DNA of 18,528 bases. It comes from a virus. Lineage: Duplodnaviria; Heunggongvirae; Uroviricota; Caudoviricetes. Each line of letters opens with the position of its first letter. Position 1 is the first letter of the stretch. Location: positions 1-18,528 of IMG/VR virus record IMGVR_UViG_2909739949_000002. One strand, given 5' to 3'. The notes under the pieces were generated by a model. The model saw only the letters and a list, made by a program, of their open reading frames with translations, had not been told where the DNA came from and searched no databases. The position numbers were made by a program, and so were the translations under genes. This document shows, one piece after another, positions 2,847 to 15,879 of this stretch.

Positions 2847-2970
2847 AGCTTCTATCTCATTCTTCAATAGAAGAGGAGCTATTTTAAAACCTACTTGTTA
2901 CTAAGTAGGTTTTATTTTATCTATTAATTTTACTAGCTTCTATCTCATTCTTCAATAAAAGAGGGAGCTA
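2847..2970. repeat. imperfect 35/36-bp direct repeat flanking an 11-bp perfect hairpin
   Basis: AGCTTCTATCTCATTCTTCAATA(G/A)AAGAG(G)GAGCTA at 2847-2881 and 2935-2970; AAAACCTACTT/AAGTAGGTTTT at 2886-2913. Confidence 0.9.
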
Positions 2971-3003
2971 AAGTCTGTACTATATCTGGATCGCTACACG
3001 TTA

Positions 3004-3071
3004 GGTAAAAGGTTGGATAGTAAAGAATTTGCACTGTATTTGGATAATCTTGCTGGGTAAAAGGTTGGATA
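3004..3071. repeat. 16-bp exact direct repeat, 52-bp period
   Basis: GGTAAAAGGTTGGATA at 3004-3019 and 3056-3071. Confidence 0.9.
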
Positions 3072-3187: not shown

Positions 3188-3258
3188 AGTGTTAGTAGTT
3201 AACACTCTTTTTCTTTTCTTCTGTTCTTTAGTGAAGTTAACAATCAAAGGACAGAAGA
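3188..3258 (+). promoter_or_regulatory. cassette element 1 (variant): terminator-like hairpin + SD-occluding hairpin
   Basis: AGTGTTA/TAACACT + T tract; 13-bp stem TCTTCTGTTCTTT (3217-3229)/AAAGGACAGAAGA (3246-3258) enclosing AGTGAAGTTAACAATC. Confidence 0.75.
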
Positions 3259-3260
3259 CA

Positions 3261-3665
3261 ATGATTACTAAACAACAAGTACAAGAACTAGGTAGATTAC
3301 TTTCTAAGATTGGTGTGGAGGTTGTACCCCACACTAGCAAGAAAGCTAAGACTAAACTAGTTCGTAACCAACAAGCTTCTTACTATAGGAAGCAGATAGT
3401 CTATAGAGTAGGTTGTACCTATGACTCTATAGTGCATGAAGCAATCCACGCACTACAAGATTATCTAGGTACTCTAGTAGGTCTACCTGCTAGAGTAACC
3501 TCTTCAGTCAAAGCTAATCCTAAGTTCGCTTGGAGTATAGAAGCTGAAGCTTATACCAATGAGAACAACGCTACCCTAGTGATAGCTAAGTTCAAACAAG
3601 CTCTTGGTATGAATCTTTCCTTAGGAGAGAGGGTAGTAGTACTAATGAATAAGGTAGTGTTCTAA
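3261..3665 (+). CDS. HExxH zincin-like (ImmA/IrrE-like) protein (134 aa)
   Basis: SIVHEAIHALQ plus downstream IEAEAY; AAAGGA SD supports ATG 3261 over the track GTG 3189. Confidence 0.65.
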   Translation: MITKQQVQELGRLLSKIGVEVVPHTSKKAKTKLVRNQQASYYRKQIVYRVGCTYDSIVHEAIHALQDYLGTLVGLPARVTSSVKANPKFAWSIEAEAYTNENNATLVIAKFKQALGMNLSLGERVVVLMNKVVF

Positions 3666-3689
3666 TGATAGATATATACATATATCTAT

Positions 3690-3757
3690 CTATTATCAAT
3701 CTGGTGAATGATGGCGTACATTCCATCTAGTGAGGTTCGATTCCTCTAGATAATAGA
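3690..3757 (+). ncRNA. tRNA-like element copy 1 (diverged)
   Basis: CTATTAT/ATAATAG acceptor-like stem (extends to 15 bp, 3683-3697/3749-3763), CAATCTGGTGAAT connector, GATGG-CGTACATT-CCATC stem-loop, GAGG-TTCGATT-CCTC T-arm. Confidence 0.7.
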
Positions 3758-3822
3758 TAGATAGGTATATATCTATCCTTTTTTTATTTCTCTTCTAGTG
3801 ATGTTTACAGTACACACTGGAG
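3756..3822 (+). promoter_or_regulatory. cassette element 2
   Basis: GATAGATA/TATCTATC + T7; CTAGTG (3795)-N14-CACTGG (3815) AG, with the A>G change kept as a U-G pair. Confidence 0.85.
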
Positions 3823-3829
3823 AAATAAA

Positions 3830-4315
3830 ATGTCTTTAGTAAAAGAATACACCAACACTTCATTTAAAGCTATTAATAAATCTTTCAGGGAGAGAGTTCC
3901 TTCTGAGAAGGCTATTAATACTTTAAAGGAAATGGAAAGTTTACCTAGCCAAGTATTTCCATATTTAGCTAGGGGAACAAAGACCAAGCACTTACTTTCT
4001 GAAATAGAGGGTAATGTATGGTCTCCTAGAGGAATAGTAAGTACTAGTAGTTCCATCCAAGTTGCTAGAAAATTTGCTATTCACCATAATGAAAACTGCT
4101 TTGCCTCTTCTCAGGGTGAGGCCAGCTTAATAATTATGCTAGGAGCAGTTGGTAAAGACTTAAGCCTTTATACCTCATTCTCGAAAGAGAGTGAGGTAGT
4201 CTTATTAAATCCTTCTCTTAGAATTAAGTTTCTAAGAAATACAGATGAATATAAGATATGGATTGCAAGTAATCTTATATTCAGAGATGAAGAAATAGAT
4301 TACTTATTTAAGTAA
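3830..4315 (+). CDS. ADP-ribosyltransferase, R-S-E (C3/VIP2/T4 Alt-like) clade
   Basis: EYTNTSFKAINKSFR helix, YLARG catalytic Arg, VSTSSS motif, KESEVVL ExE motif, in canonical order. Confidence 0.85.
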   Translation: MSLVKEYTNTSFKAINKSFRERVPSEKAINTLKEMESLPSQVFPYLARGTKTKHLLSEIEGNVWSPRGIVSTSSSIQVARKFAIHHNENCFASSQGEASLIIMLGAVGKDLSLYTSFSKESEVVLLNPSLRIKFLRNTDEYKIWIASNLIFRDEEIDYLFK

Positions 4316-4320
4316 GGCAT

Positions 4321-4384
4321 AAAAGAGTAAGATAATTCTTACTCTTTTTTTATTTCTAGTGATGTTTTAGTGACAACACTAGGA
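4321..4384 (+). promoter_or_regulatory. cassette element 3
   Basis: AAAAGAGTAAGA-taat-TCTTACTCTTTT; CTAGTG (4356)-N15-CACTAG (4377) GA. Confidence 0.9.
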
Positions 4385-4388
4385 AAAT

Positions 4389-4793
4389 ATGTTTAACAAT
4401 ATCTCTGCAATTGAAACCGCTAACCAAGTCTATTCCTTCCATAAGGATAATGGATTTGGTTTAGATCCTTTCAGATTCAGTCATGATTTAGTTCACACTA
4501 TTCTAAACTTGTCTACTTCCATAGTAGAGGAGTTAGTAGTAACTTCTCTAGAGATGGAGAAGTTACTATCTTATGAAGAGTGTGAAGGGTTGAATAATCA
4601 AAACAATATTGATTACTCACTTAACAATGAGTGGTCAGTAGAGTTATATCAGCAAGTTGTAGAGAAATATAACTCTCTACCTGTTAAGAGCATTCTAGAA
4701 ATAGAATGCATGTCTGATATTAAATGGTGGAACGAGTTCTCTAGAGAACTCGAAGTACTTCATTTATCAGAGGATGAAGATTACTTATTCTAA
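4389..4793 (+). CDS. acidic hypothetical protein (134 aa)
   Basis: ATG 4389 after AGGA; no motif recognised. Confidence 0.75.
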   Translation: MFNNISAIETANQVYSFHKDNGFGLDPFRFSHDLVHTILNLSTSIVEELVVTSLEMEKLLSYEECEGLNNQNNIDYSLNNEWSVELYQQVVEKYNSLPVKSILEIECMSDIKWWNEFSRELEVLHLSEDEDYLF

Positions 4794-4798
4794 TAATT

Positions 4799-4862
4799 AA
4801 GAGTACTATTTAGTACTCTTTTTTTCTTTTCTCTTCTAGTGAACATTTACATTCACTAGGAG
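4799..4862 (+). promoter_or_regulatory. cassette element 4
   Basis: AAGAGTACT-attt-AGTACTCTT + T tract; CTAGTG (4836)-N12-CACTAG (4854) GAG. Confidence 0.9.
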
Positions 4863-4868
4863 ACTAGA

Positions 4869-5339
4869 ATGTTTACAGTTAGATTAAATAATGCTTCCTC
4901 TTTAACCTTCACAGTTTATGTGGAAGGTTATCCAGTACAAGTTGAAAAGTCCTTACCAGAAGAGGTTGATGCCTCTTATTGGGATGGAGATGACTTAGTA
5001 TTGGAATGCTCCTACAAGAGCGAGGAGGGGCGTAAAGCTTGGGCTCATACTATGAGATATCTAAAAGAGCAGTTTTGCCGAAAGCAAAATAGCTTTCTAG
5101 ATAAGATTAGAAACCCACAATATCAAACAGTTGTATCAGAGCTGAATGATATTAGAACATCGTTAGTCTCTCTATATAGAGAGAACACTGAAGTTCTTGC
5201 TAAAGAGCTAAAAGCTGAAAAAGGCAGCCCACAAAGATTTGTATATTCTGAAATATACAGAATCAACATGGATAAAATTCAATTCTTATTAGATCGTGAG
5301 AATGATTTATTAAGAGTAAAAGCTGAGTTATTAGCTTAA
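4869..5339 (+). CDS. hypothetical protein, paralog family A (with 8007-8552)
   Basis: Shares SLTFTV..EGYP..VE.SLPEEVD.S.W.G.DL.L.CS.K.EEG..AW.H...YLKEQF; helical C-terminus. Confidence 0.8.
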   Translation: MFTVRLNNASSLTFTVYVEGYPVQVEKSLPEEVDASYWDGDDLVLECSYKSEEGRKAWAHTMRYLKEQFCRKQNSFLDKIRNPQYQTVVSELNDIRTSLVSLYRENTEVLAKELKAEKGSPQRFVYSEIYRINMDKIQFLLDRENDLLRVKAELLA

Positions 5340-5343
5340 TAAG

Positions 5344-5409
5344 AAAAAGAGTAGGATAATTCCTACTCTTTTTCTTTTTCTTCTAGTGAACATTTACATT
5401 CACTAGGAG
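5344..5409 (+). promoter_or_regulatory. cassette element 5
   Basis: AAAAAGAGTAGGA-taat-TCCTACTCTTTTT; CTAGTG (5383)-N12-CACTAG (5401) GAG. Confidence 0.9.
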
Positions 5410-5415
5410 TGAATT

Positions 5416-5709
5416 ATGAAATCTTTATTCAATGAAATCATCTCTTTAGTTAGATCTGAATCTGCTGACGAAGTACTTGAAAGAGTACAACGTGAAAAGA
5501 AGGAAGCTCTAACTAATGGGCAGGTTTACGAGTTTTCTAAAGAGGACTTTCAAGTGATTAATGGTATTCGTCCAAAGTACACACAAGTACCAGCTATGTG
5601 GGGCTGGTATACTGCATTTGCTATTACCATCTTAATGATGGTAGGTACTGCATCTAGACAGTATCTAATGTACTGTAATACTACCTCTAACCAAGAGGTA
5701 GTTAAGTAA
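5416..5709 (+). CDS. hypothetical single-pass membrane protein (97 aa)
   Basis: WGWYTAFAITILMMVGTA hydrophobic segment. Confidence 0.75.
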   Translation: MKSLFNEIISLVRSESADEVLERVQREKKEALTNGQVYEFSKEDFQVINGIRPKYTQVPAMWGWYTAFAITILMMVGTASRQYLMYCNTTSNQEVVK

Positions 5710-5715
5710 CTAATT

Positions 5716-5775
5716 AAAGAGGGGAGAAATCCTCTCTTTTTTCTTCTAGTGATGTTTTAGTGACAACACTAGGAG
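5716..5775 (+). promoter_or_regulatory. cassette element 6
   Basis: AAAGAGGGGA-gaaa-TCCTCTCTTT; CTAGTG (5746)-N15-CACTAG (5767) GAG. Confidence 0.9.
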
Positions 5776-5781
5776 AAATAT

Positions 5782-6207
5782 ATGCCTAATAAGTTTGAAG
5801 AGTTAGTTGACCTATGCCGCTCTTGTGGCATTAAAGTTGACTTAAACCCCTTCTGCTCAAGGGGGAATAACTACAGATCGGGCTGGATCGAATTAGATTT
5901 CAGGAATGAATATCTACCTGAATATCTCAAAAGGACAGGACTTTCTCTCATAGAATACCAATTCTATGGGTTGTTGCATGAGTTGGGTCATGCAACCCAC
6001 CTTGATGAACATATCAATTCCTTTACCTCTAAGGTAGAGGAAGAGCAAGATGCCTGGGAACGGGCATACCACATCCATTGCCTCTTGTGGGGTGAGCCAC
6101 CACTTGAATTCCATATAGCATGGATAGATGCCATTCAAACCTATCATCAAGCTGCTGCTGAATTGGCAGCACTGCCTGAAGAGAAAAGAAGAAGACCTAA
6201 ATGGTAA
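5782..6207 (+). CDS. HExxH zincin-like (ImmA/IrrE-like) protein (141 aa)
   Basis: GLLHELGHATH ... EEEQDAWERA. Confidence 0.7.
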   Translation: MPNKFEELVDLCRSCGIKVDLNPFCSRGNNYRSGWIELDFRNEYLPEYLKRTGLSLIEYQFYGLLHELGHATHLDEHINSFTSKVEEEQDAWERAYHIHCLLWGEPPLEFHIAWIDAIQTYHQAAAELAALPEEKRRRPKW

Positions 6208-6213
6208 ATAGAG

Positions 6214-6274
6214 AAAGAGGGGAGAAATCCTCTCTTTTTCTTTCTCTTCTAGTGAACATTACATTCACTAGGAG
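6214..6274 (+). promoter_or_regulatory. cassette element 7
   Basis: Same terminator as element 6; CTAGTG (6249)-N11-CACTAG (6266) GAG. Confidence 0.9.
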
Positions 6275-6282
6275 AGAAACCT

Positions 6283-6846
6283 GTGAAAATTTCTGTAAGA
6301 TTTGAAATCCATCCTACCTACATTTCTAAATTTGTTACTGAACGTCACTCTTCCCAAGGAGTGGCTGTTGCTGCTAAGAATCTAGAAACAGGAGAAGTAG
6401 GATGGCTCCATGTCTGCCATAAATGGAATCTACAGAGAAGCGCTGTAGAAAAAGCCAAGTGGATAATAACTTGCGGTCTTCCCAGTAAATATAATCATCT
6501 CTCTCCTTTTGGAGGGAATGAGAAGTATTTAGTAGATACCAAGTTAGAAGGATGCATACTCACCGCTTCTATTTGGAAGGATGAATATCCTTCCTGCACT
6601 CCATTAGAAGGATACTCTTGGGGAGAAGAGTCTTCTTCTAATGACAGTTCTCCATTTCCCACTGTGGAGTGTCCATATGAAGCTTTCACTCCAGAGTGGC
6701 AAGCTTGGTGGGACGGATACTATTCCGTAATGGAGACTAACGAAGATTGGGATGAAGTAGATCCCAATCTAGACTACGAGGACGATGTAAATGCTTGGTG
6801 CTACAGAGTGCCAAGTAGAAACCTAAGAATCATATTAGGTTCCTAA
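6283..6846 (+). CDS. hypothetical protein, paralog family B (with 6917-7498), acidic C-terminus
   Basis: GTG start after AGGAG; GWLHVCH...AKWIITCGLPSKYNHLSPFGG. Confidence 0.75.
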   Translation: MKISVRFEIHPTYISKFVTERHSSQGVAVAAKNLETGEVGWLHVCHKWNLQRSAVEKAKWIITCGLPSKYNHLSPFGGNEKYLVDTKLEGCILTASIWKDEYPSCTPLEGYSWGEESSSNDSSPFPTVECPYEAFTPEWQAWWDGYYSVMETNEDWDEVDPNLDYEDDVNAWCYRVPSRNLRIILGS

Positions 6847-6856
6847 TTAAATACTG

Positions 6857-6910
6857 GGAGGGTAACACCTCCTTTTTTCTCTTCTAGTGAACTCTTTACA
6901 TCACTAGGAG
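6857..6910 (+). promoter_or_regulatory. cassette element 8
   Basis: GGAGG-gtaaca-CCTCC + T6; CTAGTG (6884)-N12-CACTAG (6902) GAG. Confidence 0.9.
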
Positions 6911-6916
6911 AACAAT

Positions 6917-7498
6917 ATGTCTTACATGAAAGTTATCTTCAATGTAACTTCTCAAGTACCTGCCTCTATAGGAGGAATAGGGGAAGTTGTAGTTGCAGAA
7001 CTGAATGGTAAGAAAGGACTATTGTATATTACTCATTCCAATCATGTGGATGAGATGCTAGCTATCCAAGCAACATGGATAGTTAGTTGTTACTTACCAA
7101 AGAAGTGGGCACACAAATGTCCCTTTGGAGGCAGAAGTAGTAATACTACAGTAGAACGATTGACTATTAAAGACAGATCAGATCTCTTTATAGTTCAATG
7201 CTATTACTCTCTGAAAGGAGAGTATATAGACATTTGTGCAGTTCCCATGTACTCCATTGTACAGAGCGAAGAGTACCAACAATTCGTATCTGAAATATTT
7301 GGAGTCTATGAACAAGTGAAAGCTTGGGGAACATATAGCAAACACGGAATAATGTTTGCTATAGCTAACCACTTACCTGAAAAGTGGCAGCACTTTAAGT
7401 CCTATGTTGTATACACTCTTAGAAAACAAGAGTATATCAATGCAGGAAGAGATTTCTCTTATGGAGTTATCTGTATTGAGATTGATGAACTCGAATAA
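6917..7498 (+). CDS. hypothetical protein, paralog family B (193 aa)
   Basis: GLLYITH...ATWIVSCYLPKKWAHKCPFGG; a second LPEKWQH-like motif near the C-terminus. Confidence 0.75.
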   Translation: MSYMKVIFNVTSQVPASIGGIGEVVVAELNGKKGLLYITHSNHVDEMLAIQATWIVSCYLPKKWAHKCPFGGRSSNTTVERLTIKDRSDLFIVQCYYSLKGEYIDICAVPMYSIVQSEEYQQFVSEIFGVYEQVKAWGTYSKHGIMFAIANHLPEKWQHFKSYVVYTLRKQEYINAGRDFSYGVICIEIDELE

Positions 7499-7508
7499 AT
7501 AAATATGC

Positions 7509-7571
7509 GGAGGGTAACACCTCCCTTATTTCTTTTCTCTTTTGTTGACATCTCTGCAACACAACAAGGAG
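7509..7571 (+). promoter_or_regulatory. cassette element 9 (compensatory variant)
   Basis: GGAGG-gtaaca-CCTCC; TTGTTG (7542)-N14-CAACAA (7562) GGAG. Confidence 0.85.
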
Positions 7572-7576
7572 AAAAA

Positions 7577-7936
7577 ATGTTTCAAAGATTATTTGAGTTA
7601 ATTGCTAATGCGGGTTTAATTGTTCGCTTGAACAATATAGACTGCCATTACAATTACATGTCTAGGTCTATAAATATAAAACCAGAACAAATAGTAGACA
7701 TGTCTAAAGGATGTCTACTATCTAAGGTAGAAGTAGAATTCTACACTACCTTACATGAGTTCGGCCACTCTCTACAACCAGTAGAGATGATTGACAAAGC
7801 TCATATGACAGGTAACTTCTATCCTCTAGAAGAGGATGCTTGGAATAGAGCTGAAGAAGTATATAAAGAGAACTGGGGAAATCCCCCAGAAGAGTTCTAT
7901 ATGTTCAGAGATTACTCTCTGGACACCTATAAATAA
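7577..7936 (+). CDS. HExxH zincin-like (ImmA/IrrE-like) protein (119 aa)
   Basis: TTLHEFGHSLQ ... LEEDAWNRA; AAGGAG SD supports ATG 7577 over the track 7505. Confidence 0.7.
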   Translation: MFQRLFELIANAGLIVRLNNIDCHYNYMSRSINIKPEQIVDMSKGCLLSKVEVEFYTTLHEFGHSLQPVEMIDKAHMTGNFYPLEEDAWNRAEEVYKENWGNPPEEFYMFRDYSLDTYK

Positions 7937-7942
7937 ATAATT

Positions 7943-7999
7943 GGTAGGTATTATCCTACCTTTTTTCTTTTCTAGTGAAGTTTACATCCTCACTAGGAG
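7943..7999 (+). promoter_or_regulatory. cassette element 10
   Basis: GGTAGG-tattat-CCTACC + T6; CTAGTG (7972)-N13-CACTAG (7991) GAG. Confidence 0.9.
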
Positions 8000-8006
8000 A
8001 GAAAAG

Positions 8007-8552
8007 ATGTTTGTACTAAAACTAAATGATTGTCAAAATTCTTTAACCTTCACAGTCTTTGCTGAAGGTTATCCAATAACAGTTGAAAGATCGCTTCCAG
8101 AAGAAGTTGATTCAAGTTTCTGGATTGGAAAAGATTTATATCTTCTTTGTTCCTTCAAAGGAGAAGAAGGGGAGGGTGCTTGGAAACACTCTCTCCAATA
8201 TCTTAAAGAACAATTTCTACCCTCTATGGTAGAAACTCTTGATGAAGAGAAGTACAAAAACTATTTCAATAAGATAGAAAAGTACCAATCTGCTTCCAAG
8301 GCGGAACTCTTAACTTTCTTAGAAGAAGCAAGAGAAGAGTGGCAATCATATGTAAACTTGCAAATTAAATTCTCCAAAGAAGGTCAGCAGGCCTTAGAAG
8401 CTTCGAGGCTTCTCTTTGGAAATAGCTCTGAGAAATGGGCTCTTGAGCAAGTATATAATGTGTGTCGGAAGCAGGAAATTGCTTTAGGGAAGAAGAGAAA
8501 CCAAGCAGAAGAAACGAAGCAGATGCTAATTAGATTAATTTACTGCTCATAA
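8007..8552 (+). CDS. hypothetical protein, paralog family A (181 aa)
   Basis: N-terminal ~70 aa similar to 4869-5339; SD supports ATG 8007 over the track TTG 7941. Confidence 0.8.
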   Translation: MFVLKLNDCQNSLTFTVFAEGYPITVERSLPEEVDSSFWIGKDLYLLCSFKGEEGEGAWKHSLQYLKEQFLPSMVETLDEEKYKNYFNKIEKYQSASKAELLTFLEEAREEWQSYVNLQIKFSKEGQQALEASRLLFGNSSEKWALEQVYNVCRKQEIALGKKRNQAEETKQMLIRLIYCS

Positions 8553-8556
8553 TTAG

Positions 8557-8614
8557 AAAAGAGGGGATTGCTCCCCTCTTTTCTTTTCTAGTGAAGTTTA
8601 TAACTCACTAGGAG
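8557..8614 (+). promoter_or_regulatory. cassette element 11
   Basis: AAAAGAGGGGA-ttgc-TCCCCTCTTTT; CTAGTG (8588)-N12-CACTAG (8606) GAG. Confidence 0.9.
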
Positions 8615-8621
8615 AAATTAT

Positions 8622-9293
8622 ATGTCCACTTTAAATACTGCTGACTTAGCTTATTCTAACTGTAACTCTATCTCTGCAATAGGGATAGATATAGAAATAG
8701 AAACGCTACGTGCTCAGTTAGCTGCTGCTCAGGCTCGTATAGCTGAATTAGAAGCTGAGGTAGAACAGCTATCTACTAACCCTAACTTCAATACTCTTAA
8801 TAGAGTGGCTGGCTTGAATAAAGCTAAAGCTGCTATTAGAGAAGATAGAAGAAGAAAGCCAAATGGGACGATAACTCTAGTTACTATTGACATTGGTGGA
8901 ATGGGTAACAGTAACTCTTCTAGAGGAGAAATAGCTACTAATGAGGCTATGACTGAATTACTAGAAGAGATTCGTACTTCTTTCAGAAGTGGGGATATAC
9001 ATCTCCTTACTGATGGGCAACTAAACTCAGGTGATGAGTTTCTCTTTTGGTTATCAGTAGATGTTGGAGATATAAGTGGCATTATAGGCAGACTAGATAC
9101 TATGTCTAAGAAACATGGCTTTGAAGGTGCTTATTGTGGTCATGTTCAAGTAGAAGGTTCTCCATCTACTATTGATGAGCTAGGTCTAATAGCTAATCAA
9201 GGAATGGAGCAGGTATATCCAGTTAAGAAACAGATTAAGGCGGCTAAGAAATTAGCTGTTAAGAAGTCTATCTTATGGAGAGGCTTTAGATAA
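8622..9293 (+). CDS. coiled-coil + degenerate GGDEF (diguanylate cyclase-like) domain protein
   Basis: LSTNPNFNTLNR, LVTIDIGGMGNSNSSRGE..TN, FRSGDI, LNSGDEFLFWL follow the GGDEF pattern D.LTgl.NR / DiD.FK..ND..GH..GD / R..D / R.GGDEF. Confidence 0.75.
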   Translation: MSTLNTADLAYSNCNSISAIGIDIEIETLRAQLAAAQARIAELEAEVEQLSTNPNFNTLNRVAGLNKAKAAIREDRRRKPNGTITLVTIDIGGMGNSNSSRGEIATNEAMTELLEEIRTSFRSGDIHLLTDGQLNSGDEFLFWLSVDVGDISGIIGRLDTMSKKHGFEGAYCGHVQVEGSPSTIDELGLIANQGMEQVYPVKKQIKAAKKLAVKKSILWRGFR

Positions 9294-9303
9294 TTAATAT
9301 ATT

Positions 9304-9360
9304 AAAAGAGGGGAGTAATCTCCTCTTTTTTCTTCTAGTGAAAATTACATTCACTAGGAG
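9304..9360 (+). promoter_or_regulatory. cassette element 12
   Basis: AAAAGAGGGGAG-taat-CTCCTCTTTT; CTAGTG (9335)-N11-CACTAG (9352) GAG. Confidence 0.9.
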
Positions 9361-9366
9361 AATGAC

Positions 9367-9831
9367 ATGTTTAACTTAAAAGGTATTGTTGAGAAATATC
9401 AATCATTAACTAGTGCAGAGATATCTCTGCATTCTCTCAGAGTTAATCCTACTATATGGATTGATGAAGAGGAAGTAGATATCTTCTGTTCTTATATACA
9501 GGAGATAAACCTTATTACGATTCTCATTGATGAAGTAATAATGATTGCTAGAGACAATAACTGGGAACCTGAAGAGGTCTTTGAGTACATTCTAGTTCAT
9601 GAGATAGGTCACAGCCTTGACCCTGAACTAGAAGAACTTAACTCTCAGTTAGTCAACAATGAAGAATTGAGTGAAGTTAAGTTCCGGGCAGAGGTTAACG
9701 CTTGGAAGATAGCTGACACTATTATTCCAGAACAAACTCTAAGGTATAAAATCCTTAGAGCTAACTGCTTAGAAGCTTATAGTGAAGGGCATCCTGAATG
9801 GAGAGATAAGTGGTGTCCTGATTACTTCTAA
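9367..9831 (+). CDS. HExxH zincin-like (ImmA/IrrE-like) protein (154 aa)
   Basis: YILVHEIGHSLD ... AEVNAWKIA. Confidence 0.7.
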   Translation: MFNLKGIVEKYQSLTSAEISLHSLRVNPTIWIDEEEVDIFCSYIQEINLITILIDEVIMIARDNNWEPEEVFEYILVHEIGHSLDPELEELNSQLVNNEELSEVKFRAEVNAWKIADTIIPEQTLRYKILRANCLEAYSEGHPEWRDKWCPDYF

Positions 9832-9844
9832 TTAAATAAAGATA

Positions 9845-9913
9845 GGGGAGAAATCCCCCTTCTTTCCTTCTAGTGACAGTTAGCAATACAGCTATCTAAA
9901 TTTTCACTAGGAG
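9845..9913 (+). promoter_or_regulatory. cassette element 13 (long loop)
   Basis: GGGGA-gaaa-TCCCC; CTAGTG (9870)-N29-CACTAG (9905) GAG with inner TAGC/GCTA stem. Confidence 0.85.
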
Positions 9914-9920
9914 AAAAATC

Positions 9921-10592
9921 ATGTTGAATAAAATATTTGACAAGCTATCAAATATCTTCTCTTCTACTAACTATAATATGGGGCTTTATGCTCCTATATG
10001 GTTAAAACATTTCTTCTTCGGAAAGGGAGAAGATATGATACTAGAAAATAGTCATCCTTTAGTCTTAAAGGAGGTCAAGAATATAACAGGATTCACAAGC
10101 CCTTTAACTGAAGGATTATGGCTTGGTAGAACTGGTATTATGAGAGCCCATGATCTTTCTGGATTCTACTGGTGTGTAGGCACCTACAAATGGAAAGCAG
10201 TAGAAGAGCTAGAAGATTCTTGGATTCTAGAATGTGAAGACTATTTTGACTTTCATAGATCTGGAAAAGAAGGTACTTGGGAATTTAGATTCCCAATTAA
10301 GTATAAGAAATGGATAGAAGGATTAAGACCCTTATGTCCATTTCCTTATACTGTAGAAAAGCCCTTCAAAGCAAGTTATTCATCTGAAAGAGAAAGAGAT
10401 GAAGAGCTTGCTAAAGAATTCTTCATAGTGTGCTTTGTTGAAACAGACCTCAATAAGTGGGGTAAATCATTCTTTACTAAATGGAGAATGATTATATCTA
10501 AAGAAGCATTAGATATGGTTTATGTCAAACCTATTTCAGAAGATGAAGAATATGAAGGAGAATACGAACCTTCTGAAGATTATGAAGACTAA
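9921..10592 (+). CDS. hypothetical protein (223 aa), acidic tail
   Basis: SD-led ORF; only a weak colicin-M-like motif resemblance (see findings). Confidence 0.75.
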   Translation: MLNKIFDKLSNIFSSTNYNMGLYAPIWLKHFFFGKGEDMILENSHPLVLKEVKNITGFTSPLTEGLWLGRTGIMRAHDLSGFYWCVGTYKWKAVEELEDSWILECEDYFDFHRSGKEGTWEFRFPIKYKKWIEGLRPLCPFPYTVEKPFKASYSSERERDEELAKEFFIVCFVETDLNKWGKSFFTKWRMIISKEALDMVYVKPISEDEEYEGEYEPSEDYED

Positions 10593-10601
10593 ATAAAGAT
10601 A

Positions 10602-10656
10602 GGGGAGAAATCCCCCTTCTTTCTTTCTAGTGAACACTCTACTTCACTAGAAGGAG
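10602..10656 (+). promoter_or_regulatory. cassette element 14
   Basis: Same terminator as element 13; TTCTTTCTAGTG (core 10627)-N12-CACTAGAAGGAG (core 10645). Confidence 0.9.
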
Positions 10657-10664
10657 AATCTAAT

Positions 10665-10802
10665 ATGTCTAGCGATAAGCAACTTACTTTGGTTGTAATC
10701 TTAGTATCTGCTGTAGTATCTACAGCATTAGTAATTCAAGGGTTATATTTATCCTTGAATGTTAAAGCACAGCCAATTACTAACGAGAGAGTAACTCGTT
10801 AG
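10665..10802 (+). CDS. small single-pass membrane protein (45 aa), not in the ORF track
   Basis: Translated by hand: MSSDKQLTLVVILVSAVVSTALVIQGLYLSLNVKAQPITNERVTR; AAGGAG SD; fills a complete cassette. Confidence 0.8.
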   Translation: MSSDKQLTLVVILVSAVVSTALVIQGLYLSLNVKAQPITNERVTR

Positions 10803-10813
10803 TAATAATTATA

Positions 10814-10867
10814 GGGGAGATATCTCTCCCCCTTTTTCTTCTAGTGATAACCAACATTCACTAGGAG
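10814..10867 (+). promoter_or_regulatory. cassette element 15
   Basis: GGGGAGA-tatc-TCTCCCC + T tract; CTAGTG (10841)-N12-CACTAG (10859) GAG. Confidence 0.9.
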
Positions 10868-10873
10868 AATGTG

Positions 10874-11365
10874 ATGCTAGTAGTTAAATTTGTTCCTACC
10901 TTCAATGACAACTCTATGCTAAAGAGTGCTGAAGAAGTAGCATGGCAACTACGTGGAAATGTAGTTGATGGAGAAGTATACGTCTGCATTGATATTATGC
11001 TTCCTCATATAAAAATGTATGCTACATCCAAGCAGATCGTTAAACATCTTATGCTTCAACTTCACTTGTTTGGGGTTGGGGTGCAAGGGTGTCCTTCTGT
11101 TGATAATAATTTTCAAGGAGATTGTAGAGAGTCAGGAGCCTTCTCTTGTATCTACGATCAAATTGAAGATCTATATAGACAGACAGAAGAGAGAGGTCTT
11201 GTAACTCTTAAGACTTTTACTAAAATGAACTTAGCTAAAGTAAAGATTATGGAAGAGAAATTCAAAGCTCTCCATAAGAAAGAAATAGAAGTCTTAAGAT
11301 TTGCTTTTCTGCATCAAGTACAAACAAGACATGAAGAGTTTGTAAGAAAGCAACGGCATAAATAA
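10874..11365 (+). CDS. hypothetical protein, paralog family C (with 11505-12089)
   Basis: MLVVKFVPTF..NSML..AE.VAWQ.RGNVVDGEVYVCID...KHLMLQL..FGVGV.GC shared; GTG 10871 is an alternative start. Confidence 0.8.
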   Translation: MLVVKFVPTFNDNSMLKSAEEVAWQLRGNVVDGEVYVCIDIMLPHIKMYATSKQIVKHLMLQLHLFGVGVQGCPSVDNNFQGDCRESGAFSCIYDQIEDLYRQTEERGLVTLKTFTKMNLAKVKIMEEKFKALHKKEIEVLRFAFLHQVQTRHEEFVRKQRHK

Positions 11366-11375
11366 AAAAGAGATA

Positions 11376-11443
11376 ACTAACTCTATCTGGTGAAAGTGAG
11401 TGTACATACTCATGAAAGAAAGGTTCGATTCCTTTAGTTAGTA
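11376..11443 (+). ncRNA. tRNA-like element copy 2
   Basis: ACTAACT | CTATCTGGTGAAA | GTGAG-TGTACATA-CTCAT | GAAAG | AAAGG-TTCGATT-CCTTT | AGTTAGT | A. Confidence 0.8.
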
Positions 11444-11497
11444 GGGGAGAAATCCCCCCCCTTTTTTCTTTCTAGTGATAACAATATTCACTAGGAG
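11444..11497 (+). promoter_or_regulatory. cassette element 16
   Basis: GGGGA-gaaa-TCCCC + C/T tract; CTAGTG (11472)-N11-CACTAG (11489) GAG. Confidence 0.9.
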
Positions 11498-11504
11498 TGA
11501 AGAA

Positions 11505-12089
11505 ATGCTAGTAGTTAAATTTGTTCCTACCTTCTCTGAGAATTCAATGTTACAAACTGCTGAAGACGTTGCTTGGCAGTTTCGTGGTAATGTAGTAGAT
11601 GGGGAGGTATATGTCTGCATTGATTTAATTCTTAACTCAAATAAAGTAGTGTATAAATATCAAGTCGTAAAACACTTGATGTTACAACTATTAATGTTTG
11701 GTGTTGGAGTTAAAGGATGCACCCAAATAGATAAAGATTTTGTGGGTTATGCTTGCAATATTGTAGAAACCTTCAAACCTCTAGAGGAACAGCTAGAGGA
11801 AATTTATTTCCGTGACGATAAGCACGGAATTATATCTGCCAAACGGTATCAAAAGCTGAATGGCATTCCTAACCCTTACTACTCTAAAGAAGAGGATGAT
11901 AAGTACAATGAAAAAATTGAGAAGATAAAGTATGACTACTTCCAAAGAGAAACTCTTAATATCTTAAAAAGATATGTCCAAGGGACACATGAGGCTAAAG
12001 TTAAACGTCAAATGGAAGAGAAAAGATTCAATTCAATGGTGTCTGAAACATGGGTACTAGAAGGAGATGATTTAGTACAAATTAAATAA
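11505..12089 (+). CDS. hypothetical protein, paralog family C (194 aa)
   Basis: Tandem paralog of 10874-11365; SD supports ATG 11505 over the track 11475. Confidence 0.8.
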   Translation: MLVVKFVPTFSENSMLQTAEDVAWQFRGNVVDGEVYVCIDLILNSNKVVYKYQVVKHLMLQLLMFGVGVKGCTQIDKDFVGYACNIVETFKPLEEQLEEIYFRDDKHGIISAKRYQKLNGIPNPYYSKEEDDKYNEKIEKIKYDYFQRETLNILKRYVQGTHEAKVKRQMEEKRFNSMVSETWVLEGDDLVQIK

Positions 12090-12098
12090 GAAGAGATA

Positions 12099-12166
12099 AC
12101 TAACTCTATCTGGTGAAAAGTGGCGTACATTCCACTTAAAGAAAGGTTCGATTCCTTTAGTTAGTA
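12099..12166 (+). ncRNA. tRNA-like element copy 3
   Basis: ACTAACT | CTATCTGGTGAAA | AGTGG-CGTACATT-CCACT | TAAAG | AAAGG-TTCGATT-CCTTT | AGTTAGT | A. Confidence 0.8.
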
Positions 12167-12168
12167 TT

Positions 12169-12232
12169 GGGGATTAATTTCCCCCTCTTTTACTTTTTAG
12201 TGAATAGGTTGTATTCACTAAAAAGTAAAAGA
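12169..12232 (+). promoter_or_regulatory. cassette element 17 (perfect 21-bp palindrome variant, no GGAG)
   Basis: GGGGA-ttaatt-TCCCC; TCTTTTACTTTTTAGTGAATA-ggttg-TATTCACTAAAAAGTAAAAGA. Confidence 0.85.
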
Positions 12233-12234
12233 TA

Positions 12235-12648
12235 ATGAGTATTAAACAACTACGCGCTGAAATCTCTCTACTTAAAGTTGAGTTAGCTAACACTGAGTTA
12301 GCTTATCAAAAGTTAAAGGCAGAGTACTCTGCTACCTACCTAGTTAATCTAGGTGGAGTAATAGTAGATAGAATGCAGGTAGAGGAAGATTTATTCTGGG
12401 CAGACTTTGATCCAGAAGAAGATGATTACTGGGAATATCTAGGTAAATTATACTGTACTGCTTCTGAAGAGCATATACAGGAAATAGGTCGTCATAGAGA
12501 TATCATTCTTGGGTTAAAAGACTTACCCCAAGAATGTTGTTCTATCTTCATCTCTCTTGAAGAGAAAAGAGAACAATTAGCAGAACTAGAAGATAAAGCT
12601 AGTAATAGATTTATGTATCTATTAGAAATGCTAGGTAACTTATTCTAA
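12235..12648 (+). CDS. acidic coiled-coil hypothetical protein (137 aa)
   Basis: Heptad-like N- and C-termini; no SD. Confidence 0.7.
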   Translation: MSIKQLRAEISLLKVELANTELAYQKLKAEYSATYLVNLGGVIVDRMQVEEDLFWADFDPEEDDYWEYLGKLYCTASEEHIQEIGRHRDIILGLKDLPQECCSIFISLEEKREQLAELEDKASNRFMYLLEMLGNLF

Positions 12649-12656
12649 TAGTATTG

Positions 12657-12712
12657 GGGTGGTGTAATGCCACCCTTTTACTTTTCTAGTGACTAACTAC
12701 ATTCACTAGGAG
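12657..12712 (+). promoter_or_regulatory. cassette element 18
   Basis: GGGTGGT-gtaat-GCCACCC + T4; CTAGTG (12686)-N12-CACTAG (12704) GAG. Confidence 0.9.
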
Positions 12713-12719
12713 AGAAAAC

Positions 12720-13151
12720 ATGTCTAATATTATTCCAGGTATTGACATTACATTAGATGAAAACAGAGGGAAGAAGGTAGCTAATGCGGCTGCCTTGGAT
12801 TTCCCTAGACCTGTACTCTTCCAATGTGAGAAGGGTTACAGATTCATGTTGTGTCATGGTGATTCTAATGGAGGAATTGTCCATGAAGATAAGATAGTTA
12901 GCCCATTAGAGTGGGTAACTACTTTATTTCAGTTAAAACCTGAACTAGCTCAAGGAGATCTTTACTTACTCTGCTGTCATCAAGATAAGCAGGTAGGTGG
13001 GGGTATTCCTGGCGGCGAGTTAATTATTCCATTCCCTGAGTGGCAAGGGGAGAACAAAATCTCCATAGGTGAAACTATGGATGATGGATGGGTTTTAAGT
13101 TTCTATAATAAGAAACTTTGGAGAGAAAGAAAAGCCTGGATAGATAAATAA
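12720..13151 (+). CDS. hypothetical protein, possible caspase/CHAT-like His-Cys peptidase fold
   Basis: RFMLCHG followed ~35 aa later by DLYLLCC. Confidence 0.4.
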   Translation: MSNIIPGIDITLDENRGKKVANAAALDFPRPVLFQCEKGYRFMLCHGDSNGGIVHEDKIVSPLEWVTTLFQLKPELAQGDLYLLCCHQDKQVGGGIPGGELIIPFPEWQGENKISIGETMDDGWVLSFYNKKLWRERKAWIDK

Positions 13152-13157
13152 ACATTT

Positions 13158-13225
13158 AGGGGAGATATCTCCCCTTTTTCTTCTAGTGAAGTTAACAATC
13201 CCGTTAACAAAAGTTTCACTAGGAG
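13158..13225 (+). promoter_or_regulatory. cassette element 19 (long loop)
   Basis: AGGGGAG-atat-CTCCCCT + T tract; CTAGTG (13183)-N28-CACTAG (13217) GAG with inner GTTAAC/GTTAAC stem. Confidence 0.85.
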
Positions 13226-13232
13226 AAAAAGA

Positions 13233-13712
13233 ATGTTACAAGTTAAACTATCTCAAGCTAAGAATGGATTACATATCATTAGCACTAATGTATTGATGAT
13301 TGATATTGATTGCAAAGGGCCTGGTCACAAAGATATGGCGAGTATATCTGCAAAGAGCAGGGCAGAAGCAGCAAACAGATTGATTACCTTCTCTAAAGAA
13401 GAACAACTTCCTATAGTAATCTACCCTACTAGAAGTGGAGTGCATTGCTATCTATTAGATAGACTACGTGATAGTAGAGATGCCGAGTCTTTACTGCTAA
13501 TGACTAGAGTTGGCTGCGATGCTAACTATATAGGTTTGACTTTGTTAAGTCAGACTGGATTATGGAATGAACGTATTAGTCCGAAGAAAGATAGAGAGGA
13601 ATTTCCTCCTATCTATGGATTTCAATTTGGGCCGAGTGAGAAGATTCATCCACTGTGCCAGAAGTGGATTGATATTAGAGGTGGGTTTATAAGCCGTCGT
13701 TGGAAGTTATAG
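13233..13712 (+). CDS. hypothetical protein, possible AEP/PrimPol-like catalytic core
   Basis: LMIDID (hhhDxD) and IYPTRSGVHCY (S/TxxGxH). Confidence 0.45.
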   Translation: MLQVKLSQAKNGLHIISTNVLMIDIDCKGPGHKDMASISAKSRAEAANRLITFSKEEQLPIVIYPTRSGVHCYLLDRLRDSRDAESLLLMTRVGCDANYIGLTLLSQTGLWNERISPKKDREEFPPIYGFQFGPSEKIHPLCQKWIDIRGGFISRRWKL

Positions 13713-13764
13713 AACTTGATTCTATTATTCCCTAGAGATAGGGAGTAACACTACTACACAATAG

Positions 13765-13827
13765 AGGGGCATTCCCCTTTTTTTCTTTCTAGTGAACTTT
13801 ATGGGCACTCAGCCCATTCACTAGGAG
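13765..13827 (+). promoter_or_regulatory. cassette element 20 (long loop)
   Basis: AGGGG-catt-CCCCT + T tract; CTAGTG (13789)-N24-CACTAG (13819) GAG with inner ATGGGC/GCCCAT stem. Confidence 0.85.
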
Positions 13828-13833
13828 AATAAA

Positions 13834-14367
13834 ATGTTTAAGGTAATTATGATCGACAAAAAGAAATATAACCTTCTATCTGAAGGAGCCAATGGAAAGG
13901 TTATAGAGCTTGATTCTAATAGAGTTGCAAAGATATTTGAATTAGGCGACTCTAAAAGAGAAACTTCTCTTATGCAACAAGCTAATCAAATAAACGAATT
14001 AGTCTGTAAATTTCTTAAAACCGAGTTTACTTCTAACTACAGCAAAGAATTAATGATTATGGAGAGGTTATATCCTCTTCAATACAGAGCTATTACTGTT
14101 GTAGAAAGAGAAAGAATGTTTGAGGAATTTATCAAACAAATAAAAGAACTACATTCTAATGGTTTTGCTCATTGGGATATAAAGCGTCCATCTCATGCAG
14201 TATCTAGTTCTGATAGATACTGGGACAATATAATTCTAACAAGAGATGGGATTCGCCTAATAGATACAGGTAACTCAGTATCTACTGAAGATCCAGATTT
14301 TGAAGAAGCTTGTGAAGATGACATTAGATCAGCTATGGAATTTAAGAAGATATTTCTGATTCCATAA
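13834..14367 (+). CDS. minimal protein kinase-like protein (177 aa)
   Basis: LSEGANGKV Gly loop, VAKIF Lys, RE alphaC Glu, MIMERL hinge, HSNGFAHWDIK...DNIIL catalytic loop, IRLIDTG DFG-equivalent. Confidence 0.85.
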   Translation: MFKVIMIDKKKYNLLSEGANGKVIELDSNRVAKIFELGDSKRETSLMQQANQINELVCKFLKTEFTSNYSKELMIMERLYPLQYRAITVVERERMFEEFIKQIKELHSNGFAHWDIKRPSHAVSSSDRYWDNIILTRDGIRLIDTGNSVSTEDPDFEEACEDDIRSAMEFKKIFLIP

Positions 14368-14394
14368 ATGATCTAATCGCTTTTAGCAACATAT

Positions 14395-14423
14395 AAAAGG
14401 GGTTAATTTAACTCCCCTTTTTC
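14395..14423 (+). terminator. intrinsic terminator after the kinase
   Basis: AAAAGGGG...CCCCTTTTTT. Confidence 0.7.
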
Positions 14424-14674
14424 TTAAGGGTCTCATAGACTGAAATCTATAAATCAAAATTTAAGGCTAGTTTATATAACACATTTACATGAATTAGCAA
14501 GAAGAAATATGAATTATATTAATTAAGTGTGGTTAATTTAAGTATAAGAAAATATATATACATAAACAAAAGCTTATACAGTAAGTAATATTACTGATTA
14601 AATATATTTACATTTAAATAAAAATATTTACCTAGCGGGGAGAAAAAAAGAAATATACCTAGTCCCCCTTTTTA

Positions 14675-14710
14675 TTTTTGGTGAAGTTTACTTTCCCAGA
14701 AAGGGGAGGA
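14675..14710 (+). promoter_or_regulatory. cassette element 21 (degenerate; SD outside the stem)
   Basis: TTTTTGG(T)GAA-gtttact-TTCCCAGAAA followed by GGGGAGGA; upstream GGGGA...TCCCC + T tract. Confidence 0.5.
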
Positions 14711-14716
14711 ATTAAT

Positions 14717-15790
14717 ATGTCTTTGTTTGCAAAGTTACGTGCTGCTGCTAACAACGTTGAAGTGAGCGTCGAAGCTGCTCCCGCTAAACTCTCTGATACC
14801 TTTGCTAAGTATTACGAGAAGGGACAAATGATTGTCGCTATCAACGTTGGAGCTAATGAGAAATATTACGAACGCAGAGGAAGTGAAGATAAATCTTCTA
14901 CTCCTATTGTGTCTAATAAGATGGGCATACGTCTTAACCAAGACGGAAGTGTATTCGTAAAAGGTTTAATGACTGGGATATTCTACTGGTCTGAAAACCG
15001 CAAGTCTTGGATAGCTCCACCAGCAGTAGAGAAGAATAAGGAAGGTATAGAAGTTCCTGGTATCAAGTCTAAGCCACAAGGTTTTATTGGTACCTACATG
15101 GGTGGAATATTATTTACCCTGAATGACTATATCAGCCGTATGCAAGAAGATGGAGAGATTGAACTGGCCGCAAAAGTAGAGAAGTTGAAGAAAGATAAAC
15201 TAACTCTATCCTTTATGTGTCAGCAAGAAATCTCCTTTGACTTGCCTTGCTCCCATGACCAAGTTATTGAGCAAGCTGATCGCTTACGCGCCGAAAGACA
15301 AATAGCTTTAGATTCAGGTAAGAAAGCAGGTGTATTAGGCAATACTTTAGTCTTAGCAATAACTCTAGAGTTCAGCGAAAATCCTGATGCATTTATGACT
15401 CCCATAGTCAAAGTGCAAAAGGTACTTAGCTGGACTGAAGACTACATGCCTCTAGAAACTTGTGGGAAACTGCGGGTGGATGGAGAAATGGCTGAAGACC
15501 TGGAAGCCTATGCTATCGAACAAACCTTCAATGAGAAAGAAGCCGAAATCAAAGCCGCCAACGCAATGGCTCAAGCTGCGATTAATCTTTTAACTCCAGA
15601 TGAAGGAGGCGTTGCTGGTACTCGTACTAGTCGTCGTACTGCTGACTATAAGAGAGCTCGCCGTAAACAGAAGCAGGAGCAATTTCTACTCAATGAAGCC
15701 GCAAGGAATCTAGAAGTAGAACAATCCAAAGCTGAAGTTGAAGAGATCGATGAAGACGATATGATGTCTATGTCAATGGGAGGTATCTAA
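14717..15790 (+). CDS. hypothetical protein (357 aa) with basic patch and acidic C-terminal tail
   Basis: GGAGG SD supports ATG 14717 over the track GTG 14678; ends EVEEIDEDDMMSMSMGGI. Confidence 0.8.
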   Translation: MSLFAKLRAAANNVEVSVEAAPAKLSDTFAKYYEKGQMIVAINVGANEKYYERRGSEDKSSTPIVSNKMGIRLNQDGSVFVKGLMTGIFYWSENRKSWIAPPAVEKNKEGIEVPGIKSKPQGFIGTYMGGILFTLNDYISRMQEDGEIELAAKVEKLKKDKLTLSFMCQQEISFDLPCSHDQVIEQADRLRAERQIALDSGKKAGVLGNTLVLAITLEFSENPDAFMTPIVKVQKVLSWTEDYMPLETCGKLRVDGEMAEDLEAYAIEQTFNEKEAEIKAANAMAQAAINLLTPDEGGVAGTRTSRRTADYKRARRKQKQEQFLLNEAARNLEVEQSKAEVEEIDEDDMMSMSMGGI

Positions 15791-15812
15791 TTATTTAATT
15801 GAATAGGGGATA

Positions 15813-15873
15813 GGGAGGAAACTCCCCCTCTTTTCTTTCTAGTAGGGCATTTACTTTACCAGCCCACTAGGAG
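15813..15873 (+). promoter_or_regulatory. cassette element 22 (bulged variant)
   Basis: GGGAG-gaaa-CTCCC; CTAGT(A)GGGC (15839)-N13-GCCCACTAG (to 15870) GAG. Confidence 0.85.
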
Positions 15874-15879
15874 AAATAT

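Follow-up and report, generated by a model that had tools for sequence, protein, structure and literature searches.

A repeated two-hairpin module predicted to mask ribosome-binding sites along a gene array of a cyanophage related to Ma-LMM01

In a phage related to Ma-LMM01, a row of small genes is punctuated by a repeated module of two hairpins, the second of which (HP2) pairs with the Shine–Dalgarno (SD) sequence of the gene that follows. This pairing is maintained by compensatory change in the phage and in its relatives, and we consider it probable (roughly 60%) that HP2 is an mRNA hairpin that masks the ribosome-binding site, gating or tuning translation within a long transcript. SD masks and PeSL-type cassettes (see below) are already known; what is new is to find the two joined as a conserved terminator-plus-mask module that recurs ahead of each gene of an operon, in a family of cyanophages. 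A preliminary description, made from the sequence alone, had proposed selection on the structure of the hairpin, probably at the RNA level, and this proposal is supported by covariation, plus-strand bias, G·U pairs and loops of 5–27 nt. The two-hairpin unit, its conservation in cultured phages and its use as a recombination junction go beyond that description.

The module and its gene array

The window analysed here is the first 18.5 kb (18,528 nt) of a 168,414-bp virus record, which IMG/VR classes as a provirus and whose terminase is 57% identical to those of the Microcystis phages Ma-LMM01 and MaMV. About 21 small plus-strand genes lie between 3.2 and 15.9 kb. None of the cassette proteins encoded by the array matched a Pfam family above threshold, and a megablast comparison of 13 kb of the window with GenBank phages returned no match. 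After the array comes a gene for a 2,031-aa protein (record 15880–21975) that is a relative of Ma-LMM01 gp064. Residues ~390–530 of this protein correspond to the domain phrog_2072, which many phages carry as part of helicases, of DNA polymerase III alpha or of other large proteins to which it is fused, and the protein is also present on a 359-kb contig.

The order of elements in the module is a stop codon, a G+C-rich terminator-like hairpin (HP1), a T-rich tail, HP2 and a start codon. All 21 copies are on the plus strand, within 3217–15880, and the rest of the 168-kb phage has none (Table 1). A canonical HP2 consists of TTCTAGTGA, a loop and then TCACTAGGAG, and its pyrimidine-rich 5′ arm pairs with CACTAG and the GGAG SD sequence. 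In whole-spacer folds, HP1 begins 1–10 nt after the stop codon and is separated from HP2 by 0–6 unpaired U-rich bases (none in 10 of 16); HP2 ends 3–9 nt before the start codon in most spacers, and GGAG lies 5–8 nt upstream of the start codon in every canonical copy. RNA folding of the 21 copies gave HP2 stems of 10–21 bp with energies of −12.8 to −26.3 kcal/mol, and GGAG or its replacement was paired in all 21 predicted folds. The 6-bp arms named in the preliminary description are only part of longer stems, because the upstream pyrimidine tract also pairs with GGAG and with the purines after it. HP2 loops range from 5 to 27 nt, some of them with nested helices, and the apex of the hairpin has a conserved sequence, CUAG-UGA ... 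UC(A)-CUAG. TAGTGA is kept even though it is unpaired in the copy at 3217 and in relatives; a sigma-70 −10 box in the loop, complementarity of GUGA to the 16S tail and tandem in-frame stops (TAG-TGA) were each considered as the reason, and none of them fits all copies. In 13 of 16 spacers, a word that is SD-like or rich in G (GGAG, GAGG, AGGA or GGGG) is present in the 5′ purine arm of HP1, for example at 5716–5727, 6216–6227 and 9308–9319, so that HP1 may hold a decoy ribosome site that is also kept paired.

Table 1 Coordinates of the modules and associated features in the window
Feature	Position	Strand	Evidence or remark
Control region, upstream of the array	2847–3071	+	likely promoter region
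HP2 variant, first gene (ATG 3261)	3217–3258	+	13-bp outer stem buries AAAGGA; −15.6 kcal/mol
HP2, CACTGG variant	3785–3830	+	covariance model, 41.5 bits
HP2, SD is GGAA	4346–4392	+	fold, covariance model
HP2, canonical	4826–4869	+	covariance model, 54.4 bits
HP2	5373–5416	+	fold, covariance model
HP2	5736–5782	+	fold, covariance model
HP2, 16-bp stem	6239–6281	+	fold, covariance model
HP2	6874–6917	+	fold, covariance model
HP2, arms TTGTTG/CAACAA, GGAG paired, start codon 7577	7532–7577	+	40.8 bits
HP2, sets likely true start 8007	7962–8006	+	fold, covariance model
HP2	8578–8621	+	fold, covariance model
HP2	9325–9367	+	fold, covariance model
HP2, 27-nt loop with inner helix	9860–9920	+	fold, covariance model
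HP2, AAGGAG, precedes ORF 10665–10802	10617–10660	+	fold, covariance model
HP2	10831–10874	+	fold, covariance model
HP2, sets likely true start 11505	11462–11504	+	fold, covariance model
HP2 variant, 20-bp perfect stem	12187–12231	+	−22.8 kcal/mol
HP2	12676–12719	+	fold, covariance model
HP2, nested GTTAAC helix	13173–13232	+	fold, covariance model
HP2, nested GGGC/GCCC helix	13779–13834	+	fold, covariance model
HP2 variant CTAGTAGGGC.../...GCCCACTAG, before the 2,031-aa gp064-like gene	15829–15880	+	24.6 bits
HP1 of the 7542 module, GGAGGGTAACACCTCC then T/C-rich tract	7509–7524	+	terminator scan, spacer fold
Other HP1 hairpins, one directly upstream of each HP2	span 4321–15833	+	terminator scan, spacer folds
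HP1 stem	4321–4348	+	
HP1 stem	4799–4820	+	
HP1 stem	5341–5376	+	
HP1 stem	5716–5739	+	
HP1 stem	6210–6241	+	
HP1 stem	6856–6873	+	
HP1 stem	7943–7960	+	
HP1 stem	8555–8584	+	
HP1 stem	9304–9329	+	
HP1 stem	9844–9860	+	
HP1 stem	10601–10617	+	
HP1 stem	10814–10831	+	
HP1 stem	11444–11457	+	
HP1 stem	12169–12184	+	
HP1 stem	12656–12676	+	
HP1 stem	13158–13175	+	
HP1 stem	13763–13780	+	
HP1 stem	15813–15826	+	

The module is also a practical guide to true start codons, and to small genes missing from the annotation of these genomes. Longest-ORF starts at 7505, 7941, 11475 and 3189 fall in modules, and the true starts judged from module position are likely 7577, 8007, 11505 and 3261. A 45-codon ORF at 10665–10802 with a hydrophobic core (MSSDKQLTLVVILVSAVVSTALV...) is unannotated and missed by longest-ORF lists, and is framed by its own HP1/HP2 module. 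The neighbouring cassette genes 10874–11365 and 11505–12089 are paralogues with almost identical N termini (MLVVKFVPTF...); by sequence, the pair is a putative tandem duplication that included the module. Between 14368 and 14677 lies a 310-nt A+T-rich gap that contains an HP1-like hairpin without HP2 and precedes a 370-aa gene with an apparent TTG start; this gap may be an internal promoter or another type of leader. Three spacers contain tRNA-like elements with a GGTTCGATTCC T-arm, located between the stop codon and HP1 (3690–3757, 11376–11443 and 12099–12166). ARAGORN found no tRNA gene in the window, and Rfam returned only sub-threshold matches there, to miRNA-type hairpin models, with no family at its gathering score.

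Compensatory change and strand bias in two lineages

Compensatory change is visible in individual copies, several of which had been singled out before. At 7542–7571 both arms are rewritten yet paired, as claimed: TTGTTG, 14 nt, CAACAA and GGAG follow one another, with six perfect pairs, three of which differ on both sides from CTAGTG/CACTAG. A second register through the repeated CAACA is about as good, and GGAG is paired in both. The stem described before the first gene is also there, TCTTCTGTTCTTT (3217–3229) pairing with AAAGGACAGAAGA (3246–3258) over 13 bp with one U·G; its loop leaves the canonical TAGTGAA unpaired and holds TAGTGAAGTTAACAATC, identical to 13184–13200, which accounts for the 17 nt said to be shared with that copy. 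At 10617–10660 an AA insertion (CACTAG-AA-GGAG) is compensated by TTTCTTT in a 15-bp stem with two G·U pairs, and the inner stems attributed to the long loops at 9870, 13183 and 13789 are nested helices, present also at 15839. The copy at 3795 contains CACTGG, as described, giving a U·G pair in the register first proposed; RNAfold favours another one, in which nine outer pairs form and 3 nt bulge out, and GGAG is paired in either. The strongest case is the copy at 12187–12231 (12197), in which A-rich AAAAGTAAAAG stands in place of GGAG and the 5′ arm is rewritten to match, giving a perfect 20-bp stem.

Across the 16 short-loop copies of this genome, 87.1% of cells were paired, compared with 44–57% when the partners were slid by one to three columns. 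Seven of 14 pairs were changed on both sides in the 16 copies, and none of 500 shuffles reached the observed pairing or covariation. A strict pattern matched 13 times on the plus strand, never on the minus strand and never in its reversed control form; dinucleotide-shuffle z-scores averaged −5.0. A covariance model built from 16 copies identified 20 loci in the 168-kb genome, all on the plus strand between 3785 and 15880. RNAalifold, run unguided, recovered the core helix, with 6 of 11 pairs changed on both sides. Core covariation within this genome came mainly from the copies at 7542 and 12197, so relatives were needed.

A search for related loci with the 2,031-aa protein alone gave nothing, and tblastn with this protein returned only the small shared domain. 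Its closest relative, 37% identical, is encoded on a 26.6-kb ENA contig (assembly ERZ1426848) with the same gene spacing, and a profile of both proteins matched 13 viral contigs at 29–30% identity, which are of the Ma-LMM01 type. The module of these relatives runs from HP1 and a T run through CCTTCTAG or CCTTCTGG, a 10–13-nt loop and CTAGGAGG or CCAGGAGG to ATG, with stems of only 8–11 bp plus a bulge. The covariance model found 24 distinct copies in relatives, all on the strand of the large gene, in which 86.2% of cells are paired (48–71% when slid). One pair among these 24 occurs as AU 14 times, GC 8 times and GU once, and CTAG/CTAG covaries with CTGG/CCAG through a G·U intermediate. Besides related metagenomic contigs, the module is carried by MaMV-DH01, where ten model matches share one strand of a single 7-kb stretch, and by Ma-LMM01, whose four modules are spread from gp067 to gp064; its early region, gp054–gp063, contains none, the modules lying upstream of gp064. 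The Microcoleus phage My-WqHQDG has neither a model match nor a gp064-like gene, and a generic scan of it for masked SD sequences gave only scattered unrelated sites. When exact-arm patterns were run against viral, genome and metagenome collections, they returned only single chance matches, mostly in coding DNA, and no other multi-copy locus.

The two lineages were counted separately and in a model-based alignment, as MAFFT could not join the 3′ arms. Among the 42 distinct plus-strand rows from both lineages, no cell of core pairs 9–14 is non-canonical, one row being gapped at pair 14, and 37 copies keep U·G as the pair formed by the first G of GGAG. The minimum free energy of the plus strand is below that of the minus strand in 41 of the 42, on average by 3 kcal/mol in one lineage and by 4 kcal/mol in the other. 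Of 575 pairs, 74 are G·U and would become A·C on the opposite strand. Taken together, these data point to an HP2 fold selected in sense-strand RNA, with plus-strand single-stranded DNA as a formal alternative. Covariation, strand bias and loops of 5–27 nt together rule out an operator in double-stranded DNA. An operator for a dimeric regulator has a fixed half-site and fixed spacing, both of which are absent in the copies: the arms are anywhere from 5 to 27 nt apart, two copies have entirely rewritten arms, and G·T replaces A·T on one strand only. The preliminary description had argued against an operator, and likewise against a recombinase site; consistent with the latter, the tyrosine recombinase family PF00589 is absent from the 168-kb record, whereas control genomes matched in 14 of 14 cases.

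Transcription, translation and competing explanations

Upstream of the first module are two 23-nt direct repeats (2847–2869 and 2935–2957) and two 16-nt direct repeats of GGTAAAAGGTTGGATA (3004–3019 and 3056–3071), each unique in the genome. These repeats, together with a TTGCTGG at 3050, are similar to the tandem TTGCTGG...TATTAT repeats located ahead of Ma-LMM01 gp067, which are a predicted promoter (Morimoto 2018), and the stretch at ~2.85–3.1 kb is a likely promoter region for the array. Sigma-70-type promoters are not enriched between 2500 and 16500 (31 sites compared with 42.6 expected) and none recurs in the modules, whose loops, inspected by eye, share no consistent TAnnnT word. Terminator-like sites are nine-fold enriched (65 compared with 7.2 expected), with one per spacer, and HP1, a G+C-rich hairpin with a U-rich tail, has the predicted signature of an intrinsic terminator. 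In the published time course of Ma-LMM01, gp067, gp066, gp065 and gp064 belong to the 'middle' class, with log2 FPKM values at 3 h of 7.9, 6.8, 6.6 and 7.5, respectively. The lack of a steady fall across the modules fits a read-through RNA containing HP2 and suggests, from this relative, that HP1 is not an efficient stop in vivo; the values are low, and internal promoters could also lie behind them.

The region from −50 to +3 folds on average at −15.8 kcal/mol for array genes and at −5.9 kcal/mol for other ORFs of the phage, and the SD is fully paired in the predicted folds of 16 of 19 array genes compared with 12 of 153 others. In the explanation that we favour, the array would most likely be transcribed as one long RNA from the promoter region at ~2.85–3.1 kb. 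The 5′ arm of HP2, similar to the anti-Shine–Dalgarno sequence (UCUUCUAGUGA), would pair with UCACUAG and the GGAG of the next gene, placing each cassette ribosome-binding site inside a 10–21-bp helix of the long RNA, so that de novo 30S binding would be blocked or strongly damped. How much of each protein is made would then depend on the strength of the stem, which is not the same in every cassette, or on a factor able to open or cut the helix. The presence of the 5′ arm in the mRNA and the repression of translation are points we infer. Protection or processing of RNA ends is a likely secondary role. Another is likely as well: because it is conserved between unrelated genes, the ~45–70-nt module would also act as a homology patch for cassette exchange and shuffling. 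The mask also has points against it: stems this stable would nearly abolish initiation; the apex is conserved beyond what a pure mask needs, which hints at a sequence-specific partner; and a single transcript could hardly run through ~20 serial terminator-like hairpins if these were neither weak nor antiterminated.

Alternatively, the module could be a processing or stability mark, with the transcript cut at or between the hairpins by host RNase E, RNase III or a phage nuclease. The products would be monocistronic mRNAs whose 3′ ends are protected by HP1 and whose HP2 either protects the 5′ end or is cleaved, freeing the SD. The early RNase III sites of T7 and the lambda N leader are precedents, the spacers fold as two abutting hairpins with 0–6 unpaired U-rich bases between them, the conserved apex could be a nuclease determinant, and the tRNA-like elements in three array spacers suggest that processing belongs to the biology of the array. 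However, the relatives' stems of 8–11 bp plus a bulge are short for classical RNase III, and SD pairing, which both lineages share, would be superfluous in a pure cleavage site. Pfam searches of the phage yielded no nuclease candidate, neither RNase III nor RegB, the RegB control also being without a match anywhere. Cleavage is compatible with masking rather than exclusive of it; in place of masking we rate it unlikely, if less so than the other alternatives.

A more elaborate possibility, which we find doubtful, is that HP1 and HP2 stack coaxially as a dumbbell and that the apex serves as an RNA operator, making the ~21 anti-host cassette genes a post-transcriptional regulon addressed through the hairpin. 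The stop codon would lie within ~10–20 unpaired bases of the next start codon, and the SD would be held within a helix formed in cis, an imitation of the SD:anti-SD duplex. A single factor devoted to this task, from phage or host, would read the apex, CUAG-UGA ... UC(A)-CUAG, together with the invariant U·G, and would unmask or cut all ~21 cassette masks at once. If true, this would be a regulon common to Ma-LMM01-type cyanophages and not described for any phage.

We considered it improbable that the module is mainly a recombination linker at the DNA level, a PeSL-like boundary whose hairpin is a side effect or a cruciform or single-stranded DNA signal, although recombination within it is evident. 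In near-identical Ma-LMM01-type contigs, the orthologous copy is CTAG/CTAG (L258) or CTGG/CTAG with a G·U pair (L254 and L259), whereas L256 and L257 share the upstream part and then have CCAG and a different downstream gene. L254/L259 and L256/L257 thus agree in the upstream gene, HP1, the 5′ arm and the start of the loop but diverge in the 3′ arm and the downstream gene, which places the crossover in the loop; the G·U copy looks like a tolerated hybrid. Moreover, the downstream gene of L256 and L257 recurs in L247 behind a different upstream context, and PeSLs act as crossover points (PMC2839356). Recombination, however, needs sequence identity and not pairing, and it leaves unexplained the rewritten complementary arms at 7542 and 12197, the conserved U·G, the plus-strand bias and the fixed distance of 5–8 nt between GGAG and the start codon; nor is there a tyrosine recombinase in the 168-kb record. 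Cassette exchange is better understood as something that follows from the conservation of a regulatory module.

Least probable of all is a phage-specific promoter overlapping the hairpin, with the 5′ arm and loop as a DNA element and with transcripts begun there lacking the 5′ arm and being translatable while read-through RNA stays masked: the 5′ arm motif (TTCTAGTGA or TTCTGGTGA) is conserved even where partly unpaired, some loops have TATAAT- or TACATT-like words and T4 late promoters lie inside the e, soc and I-TevI hairpins (PMC3014915), but about half of the copies have no TAnnnT word at a fixed place, loops of 5–27 nt with inserted helices break any spacing of two boxes, the positions that are invariant in a −10 box are missing from TAGTGA and TGGTGA, there is no excess of sigma-70-type sites, and a Pfam search of the phage for a T7-type RNA polymerase gave no match (nor did its control).

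Known elements and cultured relatives

There is a close likeness to the PeSLs (promoter-early stem-loops) of T4-type phages (Arbiol et al. 2010, PMC2839356; Comeau et al. 2014, PMC4122927). Both are repeated intergenic cassettes of 50–100 nt upstream of ORFans in a variable region, both have a terminator-like stem-loop of the form GGGG...CCCC and end in an SD and start codon, and both are crossover points at which cassettes are gained, lost or swapped. In the present array, the stable G/C-rich stem-loop is a predicted terminator or attenuator, the modules stand before ORFans in a variable region with breakpoints, and junctions inside the module are seen in relatives. By contrast, the sigma-70 −35/−10 early promoter that defines PeSLs was not found in the modules, PeSLs have no second, SD-pairing hairpin corresponding to HP2, and they belong to T4-type phages, whereas the modules belong to Ma-LMM01-type cyanophages of a different family and host. 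PeSL-style cassette shuffling would thus extend outside the T4 group, on a chassis that is an RNA mask and not a promoter.

For HP2 itself, there is a close parallel in T4 e, soc, 49 and I-TevI, and in mobE of Aeh1, where helices that sequester the ribosome-binding site silence long transcripts (PMC3014915). There, as predicted here, the SD is locked in a helix on RNAs read through from upstream; in the modules the SD is paired in a predicted conserved structure, and the pairing is kept by compensatory change. The T4 hairpins guard single genes and are lifted by a late promoter inside the hairpin, whereas here a single conserved module serves ~21 genes in a row, with no internal promoter in evidence.

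Integron attC sites are also imperfect palindromes with a variable centre, are recognized as folded single strands and lie between promoterless single-gene cassettes in one orientation. However, their RYYYAAC/GTTRRRY core sites are absent here, where the arms are CTAGTG/CACTAG, no integrase was found in the 168-kb record (PF00589), and HP2 is at the 5′ end of each gene and contains an SD at canonical spacing.

SD-masking RNA thermometers include FourU, ROSE and cyanobacterial hsp17 leaders. Like HP2, they are simple hairpins in which a U-rich strand pairs with the SD, often with G·U pairs. They occur in a single 5′ untranslated region, whereas HP2 is repeated ~21 times within an operon, and growth temperatures would fall far short of melting HP2, at −13 to −26 kcal/mol.

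No account of the element in Ma-LMM01-type phages came up in literature searches. Ma-LMM01 is a cultured model phage of bloom-forming Microcystis, and its transcriptome paper raises the question of how expression is timed without a change in host transcription (PMC5780444); a conserved mask ahead of each gene in one operon would suggest that post-transcriptional control contributes to that timing. As a compact two-hairpin insulator between cistrons, the module may also interest designers of cyanobacterial expression systems. In Ma-LMM01 itself (NC_008562.1, ~49.7–50.9 kb, minus strand), two of the modules precede unannotated, ATG-initiated small ORFs, one between gp065 and gp066 and the other between gp066 and gp067. 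In Ma-LMM01-type contigs (L258:5380–5425 and orthologues), a 5-codon mini-ORF, ATG GCA TTA ATA ATA TAG, lies downstream of the promoter repeats, with its stop codon shortly ahead of the first HP1, and may encode a leader peptide.
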